A DNA stretch of 50,680 nt from Dehalococcoidia bacterium UBA2247. GTDB lineage: Bacteria > Chloroflexota > Dehalococcoidia > UBA2247. The position numbers and the translations under genes are program-made. Positions within the stretch are counted from its first letter, which is position 1; each line of letters begins with the position of its first letter. The stretch covers positions 1-50,680 of the forward strand of contig DDXZ01000001.1 of the NCBI GenBank assembly GCA_002347295.1. Reading direction: 5' to 3'. The notes beneath the pieces were generated by a model. It had not been told where the DNA came from. It saw only the letters and a list, made by a program, of their open reading frames with translations, and made no database searches. Positions 7,427 through 50,680 of this stretch are shown here, one piece after another.

Positions 7427-8359
7427 TTAGATATTACTGAACTGATTTCTTTTGATGACCTGATATCCTTTTATCAGTTCCGTGATACCCTGCTGTAATG
7501 ATACATCCGGTTGATAACCGGTAGCTTCAATCTTGGCATTACTCACGATGTAATTTCTTTTATCAGGGTCTTCACCGACCGAAGCTTCCACAAAGTAGAA
7601 AGCGGGTATCTGTTTTTTAATCTCTTCACATAATTCCCATTTACTTAAGTTAGCTGTGGAAAGACCAACATTATACGCTTCATTTTTCATTTTAGTGAAA
7701 TTATCCAGGCAATGGATAAATGCTTTGGCGACATCCCGGACATGAACATAATTTCTCTTGAAATGAGCTTCAAAAAGAATAATAAAACGATCGTTAACGG
7801 CACGATAGGTAAAATCATTTACCAGCAGGTCCAGACGCATGCGGGGGCTGACTCCAAAGACTGTTGCTAATCTTAACGTAATGGCATTGCCGGCATGCAG
7901 GACAGCTTGTTCTGCTTCTACTTTCAGACTGCCGTAGAGAGAGACAGGATTTAAGGGAGTATCTTCGGTACAGTAAATTCCTTCCTGTCCCACTCCGTAA
8001 CCACTGTTTGTTGTCGGATATATTATTATCTGGTTACTATGGCGTAATTCCAGAAGCATTTTAATAGCATCAAGATTAGTAGTGCGTGCTGCAATCGGGT
8101 CTTGAGCACAGAGGGGTGCTCCCGTTAAGCAGGCCAGAGGGATGATTGCATCCACATCCTTTAAATATTTTGAAATGACGGATTTATCACGTGTATCACC
8201 GCGAACTATGTCCAGATTTTTGTTATTACAGCAGTCGAGTAATGACGACTGGTTATACATGAAGTTATCCAGTGCCACGACCTTATGGCCTTGATTCAAT
8301 AGAGCTGGCACTAATATAGAACCAATAAAACCAGCAGCACCCGTTACCATTATTTTCAT
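7427..8359 (-). CDS. NAD-dependent sugar-nucleotide epimerase/dehydratase (extended SDR)
   Basis: Canonical MKIMVTGAAGFIGS Rossmann motif and SDR-like core. 310 aa. Confidence 0.85.
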   Translation of the reverse strand: MKIMVTGAAGFIGSILVPALLNQGHKVVALDNFMYNQSSLLDCCNNKNLDIVRGDTRDKSVISKYLKDVDAIIPLACLTGAPLCAQDPIAARTTNLDAIKMLLELRHSNQIIIYPTTNSGYGVGQEGIYCTEDTPLNPVSLYGSLKVEAEQAVLHAGNAITLRLATVFGVSPRMRLDLLVNDFTYRAVNDRFIILFEAHFKRNYVHVRDVAKAFIHCLDNFTKMKNEAYNVGLSTANLSKWELCEEIKKQIPAFYFVEASVGEDPDKRNYIVSNAKIEATGYQPDVSLQQGITELIKGYQVIKRNQFSNI

Positions 8360-25541: not shown

Positions 25542-25615
25542 GCCCCTGTAGCTCAGAAGGATAGAGCAGCGGTTTCCTAAACCGCGAGTCGGGCGTTCGA
25601 ATCGCCCCAGGGGTA
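25542..25615 (+). tRNA. tRNA-Arg (anticodon CCU)
   Basis: Acceptor GCCCCTG/CAGGGGT, anticodon stem GCGGT/ACCGC, loop TTCCTAA, T-arm GGGCG-TTCGAAT-CGCCC. CCA not encoded. Confidence 0.9.
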
Positions 25616-25659
25616 CTGTGAGCGGACAGCCCGAGGTTCTCCCTGGGGTGTAATGAGTT

Positions 25660-25736
25660 AGGAGTGTAGCTCAGATTGGTAGAGCAGCGGTCTCCAAAAC
25701 CGCCGGTCGCGGGTTCGAATCCTGCCACTCCTGCCA
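25660..25736 (+). tRNA. tRNA-Trp (anticodon CCA)
   Basis: Acceptor AGGAGTG/CACTCCT, anticodon loop CTCCAAA, T-loop TTCGAAT. 3' CCA encoded (25734-25736). Confidence 0.9.
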
Positions 25737-25784
25737 GTTTTGTACTGGCAGAACAGGGGAGAAAAGATTAAACTCCGGATATGG

Positions 25785-25871
25785 GCCGAGGTGGTGGAAT
25801 AGGCAGACACGCTGTCTTGAGGGGGCAGTGAGCGAAAGCTTGTAGGAGTTCAAATCTCCTCCTCGGCACCA
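25785..25871 (+). tRNA. tRNA-Leu (anticodon GAG)
   Basis: Acceptor GCCGAGG/CCTCGGC, anticodon stem CTGTC/GGCAG, loop TTGAGGG, long variable arm, T-arm AGGAG-TTCAAAT-CTCCT. CCA encoded. Confidence 0.9.
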
Positions 25872-25890
25872 ATATAGGCAAGTGTAACGG

Positions 25891-25965
25891 GCGGAAGTAG
25901 TTCAGTGGTAGAATGTCTCCTTGCCAAGGAGAAGGTCGCGAGTTCGAATCTCGTCTTCCGCTCCA
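25891..25965 (+). tRNA. tRNA-Gly (anticodon GCC)
   Basis: Acceptor GCGGAAG/CTTCCGC, anticodon loop TTGCCAA, T-arm GCGAG-TTCGAAT-CTCGT. CCA encoded. Confidence 0.92.
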
Positions 25966-26081
25966 ATTAATTATAAAAACCATTTATTCCCACTCATGTT
26001 ATCATTGCGCGGATAGCCTGTCCCGTACTTGATACGGGATGGCAATCTGATGGAGGTGAAATATAAGGTAGTCGGTAGTAT

Positions 26082-26154
26082 GGCGATGTGGCCAAGAGGT
26101 TAAGGCGGGGGTCTGCAAAACCCCTATTCGGCGGTTCGAATCCGCCCGTCGCCT
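26082..26154 (+). tRNA. tRNA-Cys (anticodon GCA)
   Basis: Acceptor GGCGATG/CGTCGCC, anticodon stem GGGGT/ACCCC, loop CTGCAAA, T-arm GGCGG-TTCGAAT-CCGCC. CCA not encoded. Confidence 0.9.
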
Positions 26155-41621: not shown

Positions 41622-42320
41622 ATGATTAAAGCCATATTTTTTGATTTGCATGGTACTCTGGCATATTTTTATCCGCCGCGGCATGAAATTCATGTCATCG
41701 CCGCCCGCGATTGCGGTGTTACAGTTAGCTCTGAAGCAATATTGAAAGCACTTCCTCTGGCGGATGAGGCATGGAAAAGTGTTATTACGAACCAGGGGAA
41801 AGAAGACGGGAAAGGCCAGAACAATAGTAAACCGGGAGCATTTTACGAACAGGAATTATTGCGCCGATGCGGAGTGGAAGTAACACTGGAAACTGCGGCA
41901 AAAATCATCGATGGTTTCTGGAAACTTATGGCACATTTTGTCCCATATGATGATAGTATCCCGACATTAAAACTCCTGAAAGAGCGGGGATTTATTCTCG
42001 GTGTCCTCACTAATATTGCCGGCGGAGATGTTAATGTTATCTGCGATAATCTGGGGTTTACTCCTTATCTTAATGTGGCAGTAAGCTCGGAGGAAGTGGG
42101 AGCGGGAAAGCCGGATGCCCCGATATTTCTTAAAGCGTTGGAGCGTGCCGGTGTTAAGGCTGATGAGTCCATATATGTTGGTGATAAATATAATATCGAT
42201 GTCCTCGGGGCTCGGGGAGTGGGTATTAATCCGGTGCTTCTTGATCGTGATAACGCTTCTCCTGATGTTAATGATTGTCCCCGCGTCCGGACATTGAATG
42301 AGGTAGTGGCGCTGCTATAA
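41622..42320 (+). CDS. HAD-IA family hydrolase
   Basis: IFFDLHGTL (a DxD-position variant), LTN and YVGDKYNIDVLGARGVG motifs. 232 aa. Confidence 0.75.
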   Translation: MIKAIFFDLHGTLAYFYPPRHEIHVIAARDCGVTVSSEAILKALPLADEAWKSVITNQGKEDGKGQNNSKPGAFYEQELLRRCGVEVTLETAAKIIDGFWKLMAHFVPYDDSIPTLKLLKERGFILGVLTNIAGGDVNVICDNLGFTPYLNVAVSSEEVGAGKPDAPIFLKALERAGVKADESIYVGDKYNIDVLGARGVGINPVLLDRDNASPDVNDCPRVRTLNEVVALL

Positions 42321-42368
42321 CGCGCGGGCATAATATGTGTGTGGAATTATTTGTTATAAGATAGGATT

Positions 42369-42393
42369 GTAGGGGCAGGTTTTAAACCTGCCC
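42369..42393 (+). repeat. REP hairpin, upstream flank of the RAYT gene
   Basis: gtaggggcaggttttaaacctgccc: stem gggcaggttt/aaacctgccc with a 5' GTAG tetranucleotide. Confidence 0.75.
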
Positions 42394-42427
42394 ATTTTAT
42401 TAAATTTATGTAAATGGGACTTATGGT

Positions 42428-42964
42428 ATGCAATCTCGTCATCCCTCAATGAGATTAAGAAATTATGATTATACCAGGCCAAATGCATATTTTGTTACTA
42501 TTTGTACTTACCACCGACAGATACTTCTGGGGAAAATAAATAATGGGATGATGGATTTGAATTCTTATGGTGATATTGCATTATCATGCTGGGAGAAGAT
42601 ACCGGAACACTATTCTGCGATTACATTGGCTTCATTTACAGTTATGCCTAATCATATTCATGGAATTATAATTATAGGTGATAATGATATTCGGGCAGGT
42701 TTAAAACCTGCCCCTACAAAATACTCGCTTTCTGAAATTGTGCGTGCATTCAAGACGTTTTCGGCACGAGATATAAATCAGGCAAGAAAGACCCCGGGTA
42801 GTCCTGTCTGGCAGAGATATTTTTATGAACATATAGTACGGTCGGAAGAAGAATTCAATCAAATTTCAGAATATATTATTAATAATCCGTTAAAATGGAT
42901 ACTGGACAAAGAAAACCCGGAAAGAAAAAATTCAGTGGATATTCTGCCATTTGAGCATGGATAA
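42428..42964 (+). CDS. REP-associated tyrosine transposase (RAYT; IS200/IS605-like Y1 HUH enzyme)
   Basis: HUH motif in VMPNHIHGII. C-terminal Tyr region WQRYFYEHIVRSEEE. 178 aa. Flanked by cognate REP hairpins. Confidence 0.8.
   Translation: MQSRHPSMRLRNYDYTRPNAYFVTICTYHRQILLGKINNGMMDLNSYGDIALSCWEKIPEHYSAITLASFTVMPNHIHGIIIIGDNDIRAGLKPAPTKYSLSEIVRAFKTFSARDINQARKTPGSPVWQRYFYEHIVRSEEEFNQISEYIINNPLKWILDKENPERKNSVDILPFEHG
42693..42717 (-). repeat. REP hairpin inside the RAYT coding sequence (inverted orientation)
   Basis: gggcaggtttaaaacctgcccctac is the exact reverse complement of the 42369-42393 REP. It is translated in frame as RAGLKPAPT, just after the HUH motif. Confidence 0.8.
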
Positions 42965-43024
42965 TGATATTTTAATAGCAGCTATCATATTATTTTAAAA
43001 TTTGTTATTACCGTAAATTCTCTT

Positions 43025-43049
43025 GTAGGGGCAGGTTTAAAACCTGCCC
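43025..43049 (+). repeat. REP hairpin, downstream flank of the RAYT gene
   Basis: gtaggggcaggtttaaaacctgccc. Same orientation as the upstream copy, with the loop shifted by one T/A. Confidence 0.75.
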
Positions 43050-43104
43050 GCCTGTGTTACGGAGTATTGTCTGATTGAGGAAGGAAGCTCTACAGTATAA
43101 TAAT

Positions 43105-43268
43105 GGTAACGTTCCCTTTTGGTTGATATTAAAATCATCACAATAATCCATACCGACGCGGGTGCCCTTTGGGCAGGGTATCCAGAAGTTAAATTATTTG
43201 ACTAGATTCGCACCCAAAGGGTACCCGTCAACGGAATGGAATAGAAAACAACCAAAAGGGAACGTTAC
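43105..43268 (+). mobile_element. MITE-like element, copy 1 (about 164 nt)
   Basis: 20-bp perfect terminal inverted repeat gtaacgttcccttttggttg / caaccaaaagggaacgttac. Flanks ataataat and ataatagt (7 of 8) look like an 8-bp target duplication. Internal hairpin gacgcgggtgccctttggg...cccaaagggtacccgtc. Confidence 0.7.
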
Positions 43269-43288
43269 ATAATAGTAATGTTTTCTTA

Positions 43289-46200
43289 TTACGCTCTTCC
43301 TGTCGCCAGTTCAGTTAATAACTCTTCCAGTTCCTTCTGCCAGCTATTGTCTCCGGCTTTACGGCGCAGCATGAGACTTTTCCCATCCCAATTCCCCCCA
43401 CCGTGCCTTAACCGGGTAACCAGACTGGGGCGAATGTCCATATTTTCCGTTATCCAGAGGACAATATATTCTTTCTCTGCGGAGATGGAGCGGATACTGG
43501 CTTTTGCTGCCAGTGATTTTATTTTCACGGCATAGAGCAAGTTTTCCACCTCCAGAGGTATTCTGCCGAAGATATCCCGCATTTCTGCGGCAACATTATC
43601 CACTTCCTCCGGTGTTTTTATTGAAGCTAAACGGCGGTAGAAATTAAGCCGGGTATCCACGCCGGTGATGTAATCTTCCGGGATATGCGCATTTAATGGT
43701 AAATTAATAGTGGGCATATGTGCTTCCATGATAGAGGACGGAGCTGTTTCTTCTTCTAGATTGCCTTCGGAAATCTTCTTTTCCCTTTCTGCCCGCAGAC
43801 GGGCAACATTCTCCGCCAGCAGGCGGCAGTAGAGGTCAAATCCCACCGCGGCGATATGGCCGCTTTGTTCTGCTCCCAGGAGATTTCCTGCGCCGCGTAT
43901 TTCCAGGTCTTTCATCGCTATCTGGAAACCAACCCCGAGGTCGGTTGCTTCGAAAATGGTCGCCAGCCGTTTCTCGGCAGAGGAAGTGAGCCTTCTACCC
44001 TTGCCGTAAAGAAAATAGGCATAAGCCCGTTCACTGCTCCGCCCCACCCTGCCTCTTAGCTGATAAAGCTGTGCCAGTCCGAAAGAATCTGCTTCGTTAA
44101 TGATTAGAGTATTGGCCCGCGGGATATCCAGCCCCGATTCGATAATCGTGGTACAAACAAGGATATCGGCTTCCCCTTCGGCAAATTTCTGCATTACCTC
44201 TTCCAGTTCGTTATTGGCCATCTGGCCGTGTGCCACCAGAATTTTTGCTTCCGGTATCAGTTCGGTCAGATGCCGGGTAATGCGATTGATGTTATGAATA
44301 CGGTTATGGACGAAGAACACCTGCCCTTTCCGTTCTATTTCGCGCAGTATCACTTCCCGTACCAGTTTATCATCATATTCGCTCACACTGGTCTTGATCG
44401 GCAGGCGGTTTTCCGGTGGAGTCTCCATAATACTGATATCGCGTGCTCCGGCCAGGGAAAGATGCAATGTGCGCGGTATCGGTGTTGCGCTGGCAGTGAG
44501 AAAATCGACTTCCTTGCGCATTTTTTTTAATTTTTCCTTGTCGGCTACGCCGAAGCGCTGCTCCTCATCTACGATAACCAGTCCCAGATTTTTGAACTTC
44601 ACGTCCTTCTGTAACAGGCGGTGTGTCCCGATGCAGATATCCACCGTGCCATCGGCCATGTCCGCTAAAATCTTTTGTTGTTCTTTTCGGGAATTAAAGC
44701 GGCAGAGGACATCTATTTTCACGGGGAAGGGTGCCAGTCTTTGTTTAAACGTCATATAATGCTGTTGTGCCAGTACCGTGGTGGGGACGAGGACGGCTAC
44801 CTGCCGGCTGTCCATCACTGCTTTAAAAGCCGCCCGGAGAATGACCTCGGTTTTACCGTAGCCGACATCACCGCAGATGAGACGGTCCATGCATTTTGGC
44901 TTTTCCATATCTTCTTTCACCTGGCGTACTGCTTCCGCCTGGTCGGGGGTCTCGGTAAAGGGGAAAGAATCCTCCAGTTCATTCTGCCAGGTTGTATCCG
45001 GCAGGTAGGCATGCCCCGTTGCCAGTTCCCTTTCGGAATATAATGCCAGCAGGTCACGCGCCATTTTTTCAGTGGATTCTTTCACCCGTCGTTTCAGGCG
45101 TGACCAATCCTGGGTTCCCAATCTTGTCAGTACCGGTTCACCTTCGCCCGCACCGACATAGCGGTTAATCCGGTCGAGCTGATCCAGAGGAATATAGAGC
45201 TTGTCACCGGCGGCATATTCCAGAATGAGATATTCTCTTTCTATGGAATCGTCCGGCATTTTTGTTATTCCCGTGAAGCGGCCGATGCCGTGTTCGATAT
45301 GCACCACATAGTCACCCAGAGTGAAATCACTGAGAGACAACGGCTTTGCCGTCTTACGCCGCACTGGGTAGCGACGGGGTTTCACAATGCCGAAAAGTTC
45401 GGCATCGGTTAAGAGAATGGTCTTATTCAGACGGCCGGTGCCCCATCCTGCACTGAGAGCACCGTCAATTAATGTCAAAGAGCCGGGACGGGGTAACGTA
45501 TTAAGTTGTGAAATAACGGGTACGTTCAGTCCTTCCTCTCCCAGCAATTCCGCCATACGCTTTGCCTGCCGCGTAATCAGAATAAGACGGCGTTTTCCGG
45601 CGGCCATTTCCCGAGCACCGGCGAGCAAAGGTTCCAGTTGTCCGCCATAATGTGGTGCCATAGAAAAATCCAGTTTGTAGCTCTGTTCTGTTTCACTTCC
45701 GCTGTCCCAACGGCAAAATTGCACCTGTGTTCCGGTACGGTTCAGACTATCCATTAATTCCGCAGCAGTAAGGTAAGGACGGTGCTCTGCTTCGGCAAAA
45801 TCTTCCTCTTCACGGCACCGTTGCCGCAGATGTTCTATCCGCTCTTCTGTTTCCCAGGCGGAATTTTTGATATCCAGAGGCTCATTCAGCAGAAATATAG
45901 TATTCTCCGGTAAATAATCCATAAGGGTATCGCTGATATCAATAGAATCGGTTGTATCGGAAAAAGCATCACCTGGCGGGGCAATAACCAGTGACTGAAT
46001 CTGCTTCAGGGAACGCTGTGTTACCGGGTCGAAGAAACGGATGCTCTCAATATTATTCCCGAAGAATTCGATACGGGCGGGTAAATCATTCCCCGGAGTA
46101 TAAATATCGAGGATTCCCCCGCGGCGGCTTACCATGCCCGGCATCTCTACTGCCGCTTCTCTCTGGTAACCCATAGCGACCCATCCGGCGAGGAGTTTGA

Positions 46201-46684
46201 GCGGTTCTGCCTCCATCCCGACCCTCAGTTCATAACTGGCGGAAGAGAATTTTTCCCGTGAGATTATCTTTCTCATTAAAGCCGGTGCCGATGTGATAAC
46301 AATGGTATTATTTAATGTGGTTCTGTTCTCGGAAGCAGCTTCTGCCAGTGTGGAAAGTATGTGCAGGCGCTCCTGAACGAGCGTACGGCTCGGCGCCAGG
46401 TGTTCATAGGGCAAAGTGTCCAGGTCGGGGAAAAGCAGTATAGTGGTCTTCTCACTGCACCAGACGAGTATCTCATCGTACAATTGCCGGGCGTTATCCG
46501 GTTCAGGGGTAACCAGAAATAAAGGAGAAGTTATCCGGGAGGAGAAAGCGCTAATAACGAACGGTTTGGCTGCATCTGGTACAATAACACGGTGCCGGCT
46601 ATTAGTCTGCGCTACATCCCGTATTAAGCGGGTGTAAGCAGGCATATTATCGATAAGAGAAAGCAAACAACTAAAATCCGCCAA
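43289..46684 (-). CDS. mfd: Transcription-repair coupling factor
   Basis: 1131 aa. UvrB-homology N-terminus, CarD-like RNAP-interaction domain (DYVVHIEHGIGRF) and superfamily-2 helicase motifs (GDVGYGKTEV, DEEQRFG, TATPIPRT, GQV.FV.NR, QLRGRVGRS). Confidence 0.95.
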   Translation of the reverse strand: MADFSCLLSLIDNMPAYTRLIRDVAQTNSRHRVIVPDAAKPFVISAFSSRITSPLFLVTPEPDNARQLYDEILVWCSEKTTILLFPDLDTLPYEHLAPSRTLVQERLHILSTLAEAASENRTTLNNTIVITSAPALMRKIISREKFSSASYELRVGMEAEPLKLLAGWVAMGYQREAAVEMPGMVSRRGGILDIYTPGNDLPARIEFFGNNIESIRFFDPVTQRSLKQIQSLVIAPPGDAFSDTTDSIDISDTLMDYLPENTIFLLNEPLDIKNSAWETEERIEHLRQRCREEEDFAEAEHRPYLTAAELMDSLNRTGTQVQFCRWDSGSETEQSYKLDFSMAPHYGGQLEPLLAGAREMAAGKRRLILITRQAKRMAELLGEEGLNVPVISQLNTLPRPGSLTLIDGALSAGWGTGRLNKTILLTDAELFGIVKPRRYPVRRKTAKPLSLSDFTLGDYVVHIEHGIGRFTGITKMPDDSIEREYLILEYAAGDKLYIPLDQLDRINRYVGAGEGEPVLTRLGTQDWSRLKRRVKESTEKMARDLLALYSERELATGHAYLPDTTWQNELEDSFPFTETPDQAEAVRQVKEDMEKPKCMDRLICGDVGYGKTEVILRAAFKAVMDSRQVAVLVPTTVLAQQHYMTFKQRLAPFPVKIDVLCRFNSRKEQQKILADMADGTVDICIGTHRLLQKDVKFKNLGLVIVDEEQRFGVADKEKLKKMRKEVDFLTASATPIPRTLHLSLAGARDISIMETPPENRLPIKTSVSEYDDKLVREVILREIERKGQVFFVHNRIHNINRITRHLTELIPEAKILVAHGQMANNELEEVMQKFAEGEADILVCTTIIESGLDIPRANTLIINEADSFGLAQLYQLRGRVGRSSERAYAYFLYGKGRRLTSSAEKRLATIFEATDLGVGFQIAMKDLEIRGAGNLLGAEQSGHIAAVGFDLYCRLLAENVARLRAEREKKISEGNLEEETAPSSIMEAHMPTINLPLNAHIPEDYITGVDTRLNFYRRLASIKTPEEVDNVAAEMRDIFGRIPLEVENLLYAVKIKSLAAKASIRSISAEKEYIVLWITENMDIRPSLVTRLRHGGGNWDGKSLMLRRKAGDNSWQKELEELLTELATGRA

Positions 46685-46786
46685 ATTAATATTCCTTTAC
46701 CAACACGTACAGGGCTGGTTATCAAGCCAGCCCACCCCCCGATTTTATCACTCTTTAAGCGGCGCTGTCATTCCGTCACTATCCGC

Positions 46787-46940
46787 GGTAGCGTTCCCTT
46801 TTGGTTGATATTTAAATAGTGATAAATATCCCATACCGACGCGGGTGCCCTTTGGGCAGGGTATCCAGCCTATACACCACCCCTCTGGATTCCGTTTTAC
46901 AACGGAATGGTAGGGAGAACAACCAAAAGGGAACGCTACC
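46787..46940 (+). mobile_element. MITE-like element, copy 2 (about 154 nt)
   Basis: 21-bp perfect terminal inverted repeat ggtagcgttcccttttggttg / caaccaaaagggaacgctacc. Exact 8-bp direct duplication ctatccgc on both flanks (46779-46786 and 46941-46948). The left about 85 nt and right about 35 nt are homologous to copy 1; the centre differs. Confidence 0.8.
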
Positions 46941-47278
46941 CTATCCGCTGTCGTTCTGGATAAGTACAGCTAGCCTGCCCCGTATCAGGTACGGGGTAAA
47001 CTCCAGCGGGAATCCAGGGTATTGTCATTGCGAGGAGGCCATCAGGCCAGGCCGAAGCAATCCGGTGTGGGGGGAACACTACAAACTTCAAACAATTAAC
47101 TGTTTATTAACTCCTGAAAGCTGATTGCCAAAAGCCGACTGCTATTTACCTGCGCATCACCATTCCGATGCAAATCGGAATCCAGCGGTGGGGTATGGCG
47201 GCAGCACAAACCGCAAACTATTAACTGTTTACTAATCTCTGAAAGCTGACGGCTGCTTGCTGAAAGCTATCTCTATTT
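46941..47278. repeat. Mosaic array of short hairpin modules, partly a tandem duplication
   Basis: Modules: ccccgta-tcag-gtacgggg; cgggaatccag; gtcattgcgagg...gccgaagcaatcc; attccgat-gcaa-atcggaatccag (47163-47184). Two 44-nt units, acaaacttcaaacaattaactgtttattaactcctgaaagctga (47081-47124) and acaaaccgcaaactattaactgtttactaatctctgaaagctga (47206-47249), are about 83% identical. Confidence 0.65.
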
Positions 47279-47863
47279 TTATCCTGCCGTTGGTTTTCCT
47301 CCCACCGGCCATGATTTAGTTTCCAGCGGTTTACAGATAATTTCACTGATATGCAGGTCGTGTAATCTATTGGAAGAAGCGGCGGTGGCAACGATGGCGG
47401 TATCGGCACCGCTGCCGGTACCGGCTATGGCAATGACCTTTTCGCCCACCGCTGCTCCACCTCCGTTAGCCGCCATCATGATAATTTCTACGCAGACCTT
47501 CATTCCCTGACAGAAAGTACGCAGCAAAGTAGCTATCAGTGCCGGTGCCAGTGTGCCGTAGAGAGGTTCGGTATGGAAAAGCATTGTTCCGAAGTAGACG
47601 CAGTGACCTTTTTCTTCCAGTTTCCGGACTACCTCTGCCGGGAAAGGCTGTGTCTCCCGGAAGCCATACTGCCAGGGGATAACGACCATTTGAATTCCGG
47701 TTCCGGTAAAACGTTCCGCCGCCAGGCGGGCGGTATCGCCCCGGGTAGAAGCGAGGACAATCTTATTAATGCCTCGTTTTTTTGCCCGCTCGATTACCAG
47801 TTGCAGTGTTTTTTCCGTATTCTCTTTACCCGGCTGCTCAAAATAAGTGATTTTCTCTTCCAT
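47279..47863 (-). CDS. Pyruvate kinase alpha/beta (C-terminal) domain-like protein
   Basis: 194 aa. YFEQPGKENTEKTL...IVLASTRGDTA...GQGMKVCVEIIMMAANGG...IAIAGTGSGADTA is typical of stand-alone PK_C-like proteins, as recalled. Confidence 0.65.
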   Translation of the reverse strand: MEEKITYFEQPGKENTEKTLQLVIERAKKRGINKIVLASTRGDTARLAAERFTGTGIQMVVIPWQYGFRETQPFPAEVVRKLEEKGHCVYFGTMLFHTEPLYGTLAPALIATLLRTFCQGMKVCVEIIMMAANGGGAAVGEKVIAIAGTGSGADTAIVATAASSNRLHDLHISEIICKPLETKSWPVGGKPTAG

Positions 47864-48025
47864 TAATTTCTCTCCTGTTAATTTATACTGTTAAACAAAT
47901 CCGAAGCACGAAATCCGAAATCCGAGACAATATCAAAAGTATAATATTAAATGAACAAAACGTTTCGTTGGTAGTGTTTCGGGAAATTAGATTTGTTTCG
48001 TTTTTCGACATTCGAATTTCGAATT
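47864..48025. repeat. A+C-arm / G+T-arm imperfect palindrome (family copy 3)
   Basis: aaatccgaagcacgaaatccgaaatccgagacaa ... cgtttcgttggtagtgtttcgggaaattagatttgtttcgtttttcgacattcgaatttcgaatttca. Same architecture as 2851-3075 and 26161-26298. Confidence 0.55.
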
Positions 48026-49213: not shown

Positions 49214-49466
49214 CCTGACGTTACTTTAGAATGCTCGCTCTCCTTTCGTCAACTGTATCTCCCCTTACCATCCCGATGAAAATCGGGGGTCCAGAGGAAT
49301 TTTGCCTTATTGTGCACAACCTTTCTCTCGCCTTTGATGGGAGAGACTGAATGAGAGTGAAATGTCATTGCGAGCGAAGCGTGGCAACCTAGTTGTGGGG
49401 GTGAGCTACACAAATCAGAAACTGTCGACTGCGAACCATCCGCTGACTAGTGCCTACGGACAGCTT
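49214..49466. repeat. Mosaic array of short hairpin modules
   Basis: atcccgat-gaaa-atcgggggtccag (49270-49293). A 43-nt module ctttctctcgcctttgatgggagagactgaatgagagtgaaat (49321-49363). gtcattgcgagcgaagcgtggcaacc (49364-49389). Confidence 0.65.
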
Positions 49467-50606: not shown

Positions 50607-50680
50607 CTTCCTCTCTCCCTTGATGGGAGAGACTGAGTGAGAGTGAAATTGTTCCTCTTCCTATTGTCATTCCCGCCTCC
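50607..50680. repeat. Hairpin-module array (second copy of the 43-nt module, then gtcattcccgc..., truncated by the window end)
   Basis: cttcctctctcccttgatgggagagactgagtgagagtgaaat (50607-50649) matches 49321-49363 at 39 of 43 positions, in the same orientation. Confidence 0.65.

Follow-up and report, generated by a model that had tools for sequence, protein, structure and literature searches.

The transcription-repair coupling factor gene mfd (43289 to 46684, minus strand) lies toward the right end of the window, by which we mean the whole 50,680-nucleotide (nt) stretch of contig DDXZ01000001.1 from Dehalococcoidia bacterium UBA2247 that was analyzed here, and its Pfam domains and homologues indicate an intact product of 1131 amino acids (aa). 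[quoted passage not shown] Both are short and noncoding, and the sole overlapping open reading frame (ORF; 46819 to 47124) has no Pfam match. Inverted ends, a target duplication, insertion polymorphism, and the presence of several copies make both elements genuine MITEs left by real transposition, as a first-pass annotation of this DNA had proposed. That annotation placed them in the IS66 family; they belong instead to a zinc finger-bearing, IS6-like branch of insertion sequences (ISs) that is similar to ISDsp3 and frequent among Chloroflexota.

Structure and polymorphism of the two elements

The terminal inverted repeats (TIRs) of copy 2 (left, 46787 to 46807, plus strand, GGTAGCGTTCCCTTTTGGTTG; right, 46920 to 46940, minus strand) are complementary at all 21 positions, and the element is bracketed by an exact 8-bp target duplication, CTATCCGC, with 8 of 8 positions alike on the left (46779 to 46786) and the right (46941 to 46948). 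In copy 1, the left TIR (43105 to 43125, plus strand; GGTAACGTTCCCTTTTGGTTG) equals the consensus end of the IS6-like ISs described below, and the right TIR (43249 to 43268, minus strand) comprises 20 nt, all 20 complementary to the left arm. The right end reads GTTAC and is followed by A at 43269, where the terminal C is expected, so that 20 of 21 positions are kept. The perfect arms reported by the first-pass annotation (21 bp in copy 2 and 20 bp in copy 1) thus stand, with the shorter length in copy 1 attributable to loss of that C. The true element ends are GG...CC rather than GTAA, and the GTAA or GTAG motif begins at the second base. Across the 50.7-kb window, GTARCGTTCCCTTTTGGTTG has exactly four matches, which form two inverted pairs (43106 to 43125, plus, with 43249 to 43268, minus; 46788 to 46807, plus, with 46920 to 46939, minus), with 0 expected from 100 shuffles.

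The octamers on either side of copy 1 (ataataat and ataatagt) agree at seven of eight positions and had been read as a target duplication. The letters do agree, but the empty site does not bear out that reading. Contig L015, which encodes an Mfd 98% identical to that of the window, carries copy 2 and lacks copy 1; its site reads CTCTACAGTATAATAATAGTAATGTTTTC, which gives the empty allele as CTCTACAGTATAATAATAGTAATG. Contigs from runs X4 and X8, which belong to two separate studies, likewise lack copy 1 and join 43099 directly to 43269, skipping 169 nt; over 3.5 kb, these strains differ from the window by 16 bases (0.45%) and by 47 bases (1.3%), respectively. The filled allele therefore exceeds the empty one by 169 nt, made up of the element itself (164 nt) and one ATAAT (5 nt; left, 43100 to 43104; right, 43269 to 43273), and the right-hand octamer owes its "agt" to the original flank and not to duplicated target. 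The duplication at copy 1 is thus the 5-bp ATAAT, and the apparent 7-of-8 match consists in part of flank that the empty site already holds. Since 165 + 8 nt would be gained in a canonical event, a single 4-nt loss (the terminal C and ATA) at the right junction would reconcile copy 1 with such an event. With its right junction 4 nt below the canonical form (no terminal C and 3 nt fewer of duplication), copy 1 is probably immobile now. Empty-site alleles, suggested earlier as a check on both elements, were thus recovered for copy 1, whereas copy 2 was filled in every strain seen.

Several observations bear on copy number. A Logan contig of 3578 nt, retrieved by exact look-up of the window Mfd, stops 30 nt inside each MITE, as an assembly at k = 31 is expected to do at a repeat, and the repeat nature of the MITEs explains the assembly breaks on both sides of mfd. 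Depth over the MITE ends is ~7 to ~24 times that of the flanking unique DNA. The metagenome of run X1 contains at least six different left flanks of the MITE end, the single-organism data set X3 has a further MITE copy with another flank, and some flanks appear in run X4 only. Contig depth and the number of distinct flanks together suggest roughly 7 to 12 MITE copies, some of which may sit in co-occurring organisms; further copies, for which the first-pass annotation had proposed a search, are thus indicated. An apparent end-to-end joint (43268 to 46786), considered as a case of abutted elements, was traced to a single contig of 4966 nt that is bordered by two other MITE copies and whose two ends had been read as the joint. 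The organism itself is present in oil-field, hydrocarbon, and groundwater metagenomes.

Each MITE is built from an end, an AT-rich spacer, a forward hairpin module, a variable linker, a reverse hairpin module, and a second end. The forward module (module A; inner hairpin CCATACCGACGCGGGTGCCCTTTGGGCAGGGTATCCAG) is the "...ATCCAG" hairpin that had been recognized in the interior; it runs from CCATACCG to GGTATCCAG around a nested GGGTGCCCTTTGGGCA hairpin and is identical in copy 1 (43148 to 43185, plus strand) and copy 2 (46831 to 46868). The reverse module (module B) of copy 1 (43202 to 43239, minus strand) is inverted and degenerate and has a nested hairpin; its pairing with module A turns copy 1 into a palindrome over nearly its full length. 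In copy 2, module B (46885 to 46910, minus strand) has the simple form CCATTCCGTTGTAAAACGGAATCCAG. The nested GGGTRCCCTTTGGGYR hairpin is found in module A and in the right-hand module of copy 1 and is absent from the right-hand module of copy 2, and this difference, together with the linker, accounts for the unlike centers of the two copies. As noted earlier, the copies have their left and right parts in common, measured here at ~82 nt and ~40 nt, and these shared parts are only 82 to 95% alike. The predicted single-strand fold of copy 1, an almost complete palindrome, has an energy of −44.4 kcal/mol (z = −10.6), and that of copy 2, a less complete palindrome, −42.1 kcal/mol (z = −7.8). A scan of positions 42000 to 48000 against Rfam (E ≤ 1) returned no known RNA family and only a chance RT-11 match inside mfd.

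The modules belong to a family of the form CCATWCCG-loop-CGGWATCCAG, and the interior of the MITEs consists of two inverted copies of this small hairpin module, which is very abundant in the host genome. Comparison of the MITE interior with the subterminal parts of the full ISs gave no similarity, and there is no IS sequence inside. Free-standing modules (CCATTCCG-loop-CGGAATCCAG) occur at 107 to 132, 47160 to 47185, and 49267 to 49296. Modules and other short palindromes, such as GCCCCGTATCAGGTACGGGG, fill the intergenic DNA to the right of copy 2 (46941 to 47300), over which contig depth is ~40 times that of unique DNA in several metagenomes. Nearby intergenic DNA also contains direct repeats of 65 nt (47081 to 47145 and 47206 to 47270; 74% identity) and 43 nt (49321 to 49363 and 50607 to 50649; 91% identity), which are probably other members of the small-repeat population of this genome.

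Insertion sequences and cassettes with the same end

The 21-nt end has the form GGTA[A/T/G]CGTTCC[C/A]TTTTGGTTG. A metagenome scan for it returned eight loci, three of which, once mismatches were allowed, had paired ends with perfect 8-bp duplications. Two of these are cassettes with a single ORF and no transposase: L003 (2127 to 2966; 840 bp; duplication TGCTAATG; ORF of 177 aa) and L004 (339 to 819; 481 bp; duplication CTCGTAGC; ORF of 111 aa). The 10 nt adjoining the left end of the MITEs (GATWTTAAWW) resemble the same stretch in both cassettes. The cassette ORF products are membrane protein-like, and in size the elements, which resemble mobile insertion cassettes, fall between an IS and a MITE. 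The third locus, L005 (1462 bp; duplication GTTACGAA), has a zinc finger ORF (761 to 1039) followed, after a frameshift, by a DDE ORF (1086 to 1730). Its right end is exactly the window MITE end, and its left end differs at position 6. The 92-aa N-terminal product of this frameshifted transposase is met again in several public sources.

A search with the read-through L005 protein gave 2351 homologues (E ≤ 1e-10), the named ones from Dehalococcoidales or Chloroflexota, and nine transposase homologues were fetched with their flanks. Seven elements obtained in this way (L011, L013, L014, L017, L018, L025, and L026) have GGTA-N-CGTTCC-C/A-...TTTGGTTG ends and are flanked by perfect 8-bp duplications; the L011 element is recorded a second time as L012, and L019 and L020 repeat L018. 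These seven and L005 make up eight complete ISs of 1357 to 2154 bp, and four of the full-length elements measure 1435 to 1499 bp. In L008, of which one end is visible, the exact MITE end adjoins a transposase of 73% identity; L022, a diverged relative, has a transposase, a diverged end, and no visible duplication; and L021 shows a single diverged end only. The 21-nt end is identical to, or differs at one to three positions from, the ends of the eight complete ISs and of L008. It starts with GG in 18 of the 20 ends tabulated, as do all four ends of L025 and L026, and perfect 8-bp duplications flank 11 of 12 elements (copies 1 and 2, the two cassettes, and the eight complete ISs). Full-length ISs with the same termini, the second kind of relative that the first-pass annotation had proposed to look for, are thus present in Chloroflexota and in metagenome contigs.

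The encoded transposases are ~310 to 360 aa long, with a CxxC zinc finger at the N terminus and a DDE domain. The DDE ORF of L005 matches Pfam DDE_Tnp_IS240 at 52.7 bits (cutoff, 27), the domain is precomputed on all of the homologues, and the best NCBIfam model, IS6 transposase, gives a full-length match at 96 to 109 bits. Every transposase-bearing element with the MITE end encodes such an IS6-type protein, as does L022 with its diverged end, and none encodes an IS66 TnpC. The named relatives of the window Mfd (50 to 56% identity) are from Dehalococcoidia or Chloroflexota, as are the named relatives of the transposase, so the host fits the ISDsp3-like branch. The consensus end of 21 to 22 nt therefore ties together MITEs, cargo cassettes, and full ISs within a little-studied zinc finger branch that is large, its 2351 homologues coming mostly from Chloroflexota and subsurface metagenomes.

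In several full-length ISs, a second ORF begins at or overlaps the transposase stop codon (L011, 2519 to 2992; L013, 2448 to 3020; L005, 1727 to 2206). Its product is a small protein with a membrane-like segment at the N terminus; those of L011 and L013 share 42% identity, and that of L005, the only passenger ORF scanned, matched no Pfam family. This second ORF may correspond to the "passenger gene" of ISDsp3.

The scan of genome contigs gave one solo match, at 7500 to 7520 of L001 (Chromatiaceae metagenome-assembled genome JACKMT010000003.1), where 20 nt agree exactly with the G-type end and the 8 kb available contain neither a partner arm nor a transposase; it could be a chance match, about two being expected in 596 Gb, or a transfer remnant outside Chloroflexota. 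The scan of viral contigs gave one solo end (L016), which is uninformative, and the two Logan contigs with transposase homologues that were fetched came from samples other than the oil-field runs.

The two MITEs differ in their ends at position 5 only (A43109/T43265 in copy 1 and G46791/C46936 in copy 2). This mirrored A:T-to-G:C change is real; it had been taken as a sign of selection for symmetric transposase recognition or for a hairpin, and the wider set of elements speaks against that part of the proposal. No site of the end varies more than position 5. Of the 20 tabulated ends, 8 have A there, 8 have T, and 4 have G; once L025 and L026 are added, the 24 ends of 12 elements have A in 10 cases, T in 10, and G in 4. 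Nearly all other positions are invariant. Left and right arms are A/A in copy 1 and L005, G/G in copy 2 and L014, T/T in L013 and L017, T/A in L003, L011, L018, L025, and L026, and A/T in L004. The arms are thus unlike in 6 of the 12 elements, and all six have perfect 8-bp duplications, from which it follows that symmetry at position 5 is not required. Among the first ten elements, arm concordance at this position (6/10, versus 0.36 expected) was not significant (P = 0.11). The preferred reading of the mirrored change is therefore that an unconstrained site was hit twice. Both MITE copies do have flawless arms (20 to 21 nt), whereas most of the ~1.4-kb relatives have one to three arm mismatches. 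Hairpin-templated correction could yield such arms; it is the weaker alternative, and two MITE copies are too few for a test.

Mobilization of the elements and alternative readings

We propose, with a probability of about 0.85, that the MITE ends are recognized in trans by an ISDsp3-like, IS6-type transposase that makes an 8-bp staggered cut; the ends, the duplications, and the link between this end and the transposase are observed, and the mobilization in trans and its chemistry are inferred. On this proposal, the MITEs would be nonautonomous deletion derivatives of the zinc finger IS6/IS26 branch, and the transposase would come from a full-length relative located at another place in the genome or in the population. 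It would bind the 21- to 22-bp ends, GGTA-N-CGTTCC-C/A-TTTTGGTTGA, and insert the element at an 8-bp staggered cut, of which copy 2 would be the canonical outcome.

Several points weigh against this proposal. A tblastn search of the window found no transposase of the type that accompanies the MITE end, which agrees with the earlier placement of the autonomous partner outside the window. L005 had no nucleotide match of ≥80% in metagenomes X1 to X4, which hold the organism, in an alignment that reports no lone 21-nt matches and is silent on diverged partners. The duplication at copy 1 is 5 bp and not 8 bp. The IS6 scores of the transposases (96 to 109 bits) fall below the curated equivalog cutoff of NCBI (125 bits), which makes the branch peripheral within IS6. 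ISDsp3 belongs to none of the IS6 clades of Harmer and Hall (PMC6807381, PMC7986276), so that, with these scores, "IS6 family" is valid for the branch only in a broad sense. Finally, the classical IS6/IS26 cointegrate route leaves a simple 160-bp MITE insertion unexplained; such an insertion would call for resolution across ~150 bp or for another pathway in this branch. The simple insertions of the MITEs and of the 0.5- to 0.8-kb cassettes might reflect a branch that follows a different pathway (cut-and-paste or copy-out) or resolves cointegrates across ~150 bp, with hairpin-templated cocorrection of the arms explaining the mirrored A-to-G change; we regard this combination as rather improbable.

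Among the alternatives, the one that survives best grants the MITEs the same origin and holds that they are fossils with no active partner left, the copy 1 polymorphism being a loss by hairpin-stimulated slippage between the ATAAT repeats. A partner was found neither in the window nor, as L005, in the four metagenomes, the end of copy 1 is damaged, the two copies have diverged in their shared parts, and slippage between 5-bp repeats would leave precisely the empty allele that was seen. That allele suits an ancestral site equally well. The perfect 20- to 21-nt ends of both MITEs, set beside the arm mismatches of most full-length relatives, count against the fossil reading, as do the many copies with different flanks, some of them peculiar to run X4. 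We consider the fossil scenario possible, though clearly less probable than mobilization in trans by a full-length relative.

Directly to the left of copy 1 is an ORF of 178 aa (42428 to 42964, plus strand) that matches Pfam Y1_Tnp and the NCBIfam model NF047646 for a REP (repetitive extragenic palindromic)-associated tyrosine transposase (RAYT), the latter at 70 bits against a cutoff of 80. Hairpins of sequence GGGGCAGGTTTAAAACCTGCCCC lie on both sides of it (42367 to 42393 and 43023 to 43050), and a third lies inside the ORF (42687 to 42719), where it encodes ...RAGLKPAPT.... The region from 42367 to 43050 thus has the look of a RAYT gene accompanied by its REP sequences. This neighbor, the strong hairpins of the elements, and the wealth of small palindromic modules in the genome would suit a reading of the elements as REP- or REPIN-like repeats moved by a Y1 transposase and not as DDE-type MITEs. 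To our knowledge, Y1 transposases make no target duplication, and copy 2 and its relatives carry duplications of 8 bp; moreover, the hairpins around the RAYT gene differ in sequence from the MITEs, the ends of which are identical to those of DDE ISs. We therefore judge this reading very improbable. Least credible of all is an IS66 origin with movement by a TnpC encoded elsewhere, which the 8-bp duplication at copy 2 and the GTAA or GTAG from the second base of the ends had seemed to favor, since the true ends are GG...CC in copy 2, in the complete ISs, and in the two cargo cassettes with intact duplications, and the transposases found with the MITE end are of the IS6-type DDE_Tnp_IS240 kind, none belonging to a ~2.5-kb, three-gene element of the IS66 type.

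Two other features of the window deserve mention. The best sigma-70-like site upstream of mfd (46742 to 46771, minus strand; ATGACA-18-TAAAAT, with TG), a consensus match only, lies 15 nt short of the left end of copy 2; the MITE lies on its upstream side, and the site is not interrupted. Metatranscriptomes X19 to X21 gave zero coverage of the mfd and MITE region, and we claim no regulatory role for the MITEs in mfd expression. Farther to the left, at 25547 to 26142, three tRNA-like sequences stand in a row and are reported as a repeat family ending in GGTTCGAATC.

Comparison with known systems

The likeness to IS66 extends to the 8-bp duplication and to GTAA within the ends. IS66 elements are ~2.5 kb long and carry tnpA, tnpB, and tnpC, whereas these genes were found on no element with the MITE end. 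The family assignment is thereby corrected from IS66 to the zinc finger IS6/ISDsp3-like branch.

IS26 and IS257 agree with the ISs that carry the MITE end in having GG ends, an 8-bp duplication, and a DDE domain of one family. Classical members of the IS6/IS26/IS257 group are ~800 bp long, have 14-bp ends and no zinc finger, and form cointegrates only. Against these compact, single-gene elements, the ISs with the MITE end measure 1357 to 2154 bp, have a zinc finger extension, and often include a second ORF. The IS6 family as a whole is described as making 8-bp duplications and having ends that start with GG, and one of its clades has an N-terminal zinc finger (PMC6807381, PMC7986276). ISCpe7 is among the zinc finger IS6-like ISs of ISfinder's IS6 clade h/VII, and ISCpe7 IS6-like transposases on plasmids are the nearest annotated relatives of the transposases described here. 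The two have in common the CxxC pairs as well as conserved D, D, E, and K residues; identity is only ~30%, however, an examination of ISCpe7 for MITE-like ends found nothing similar, and the window elements have no transposase of their own.

ISfinder lists only two MITEs of the IS6 family, MITEBth2 and MITEHarch3 (PMC6807381, PMC7986276). Like the window MITEs, they are short and noncoding and have IS6-family ends. They differ in length (227 and 336 bp, versus 154 to 164 bp in the window), in host, and in end sequence, and the interior of the window MITEs is filled with unrelated hairpin modules, not with remnants of an IS. MITEs of this family are rare in the literature, and their existence bears on the question of whether cointegrates are the only products open to every IS6-like transposase.

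The closest resemblance, judged by published description only, is to ISDsp3 of Dehalococcoides sp. BAV1, an element of 1456 bp with a 319-aa transposase, an 8-bp duplication, and a passenger gene (PMC6807381, PMC7986276). The ISs with the MITE end share with it their length range, protein size, 8-bp duplication, passenger gene, and a host in the Chloroflexota.

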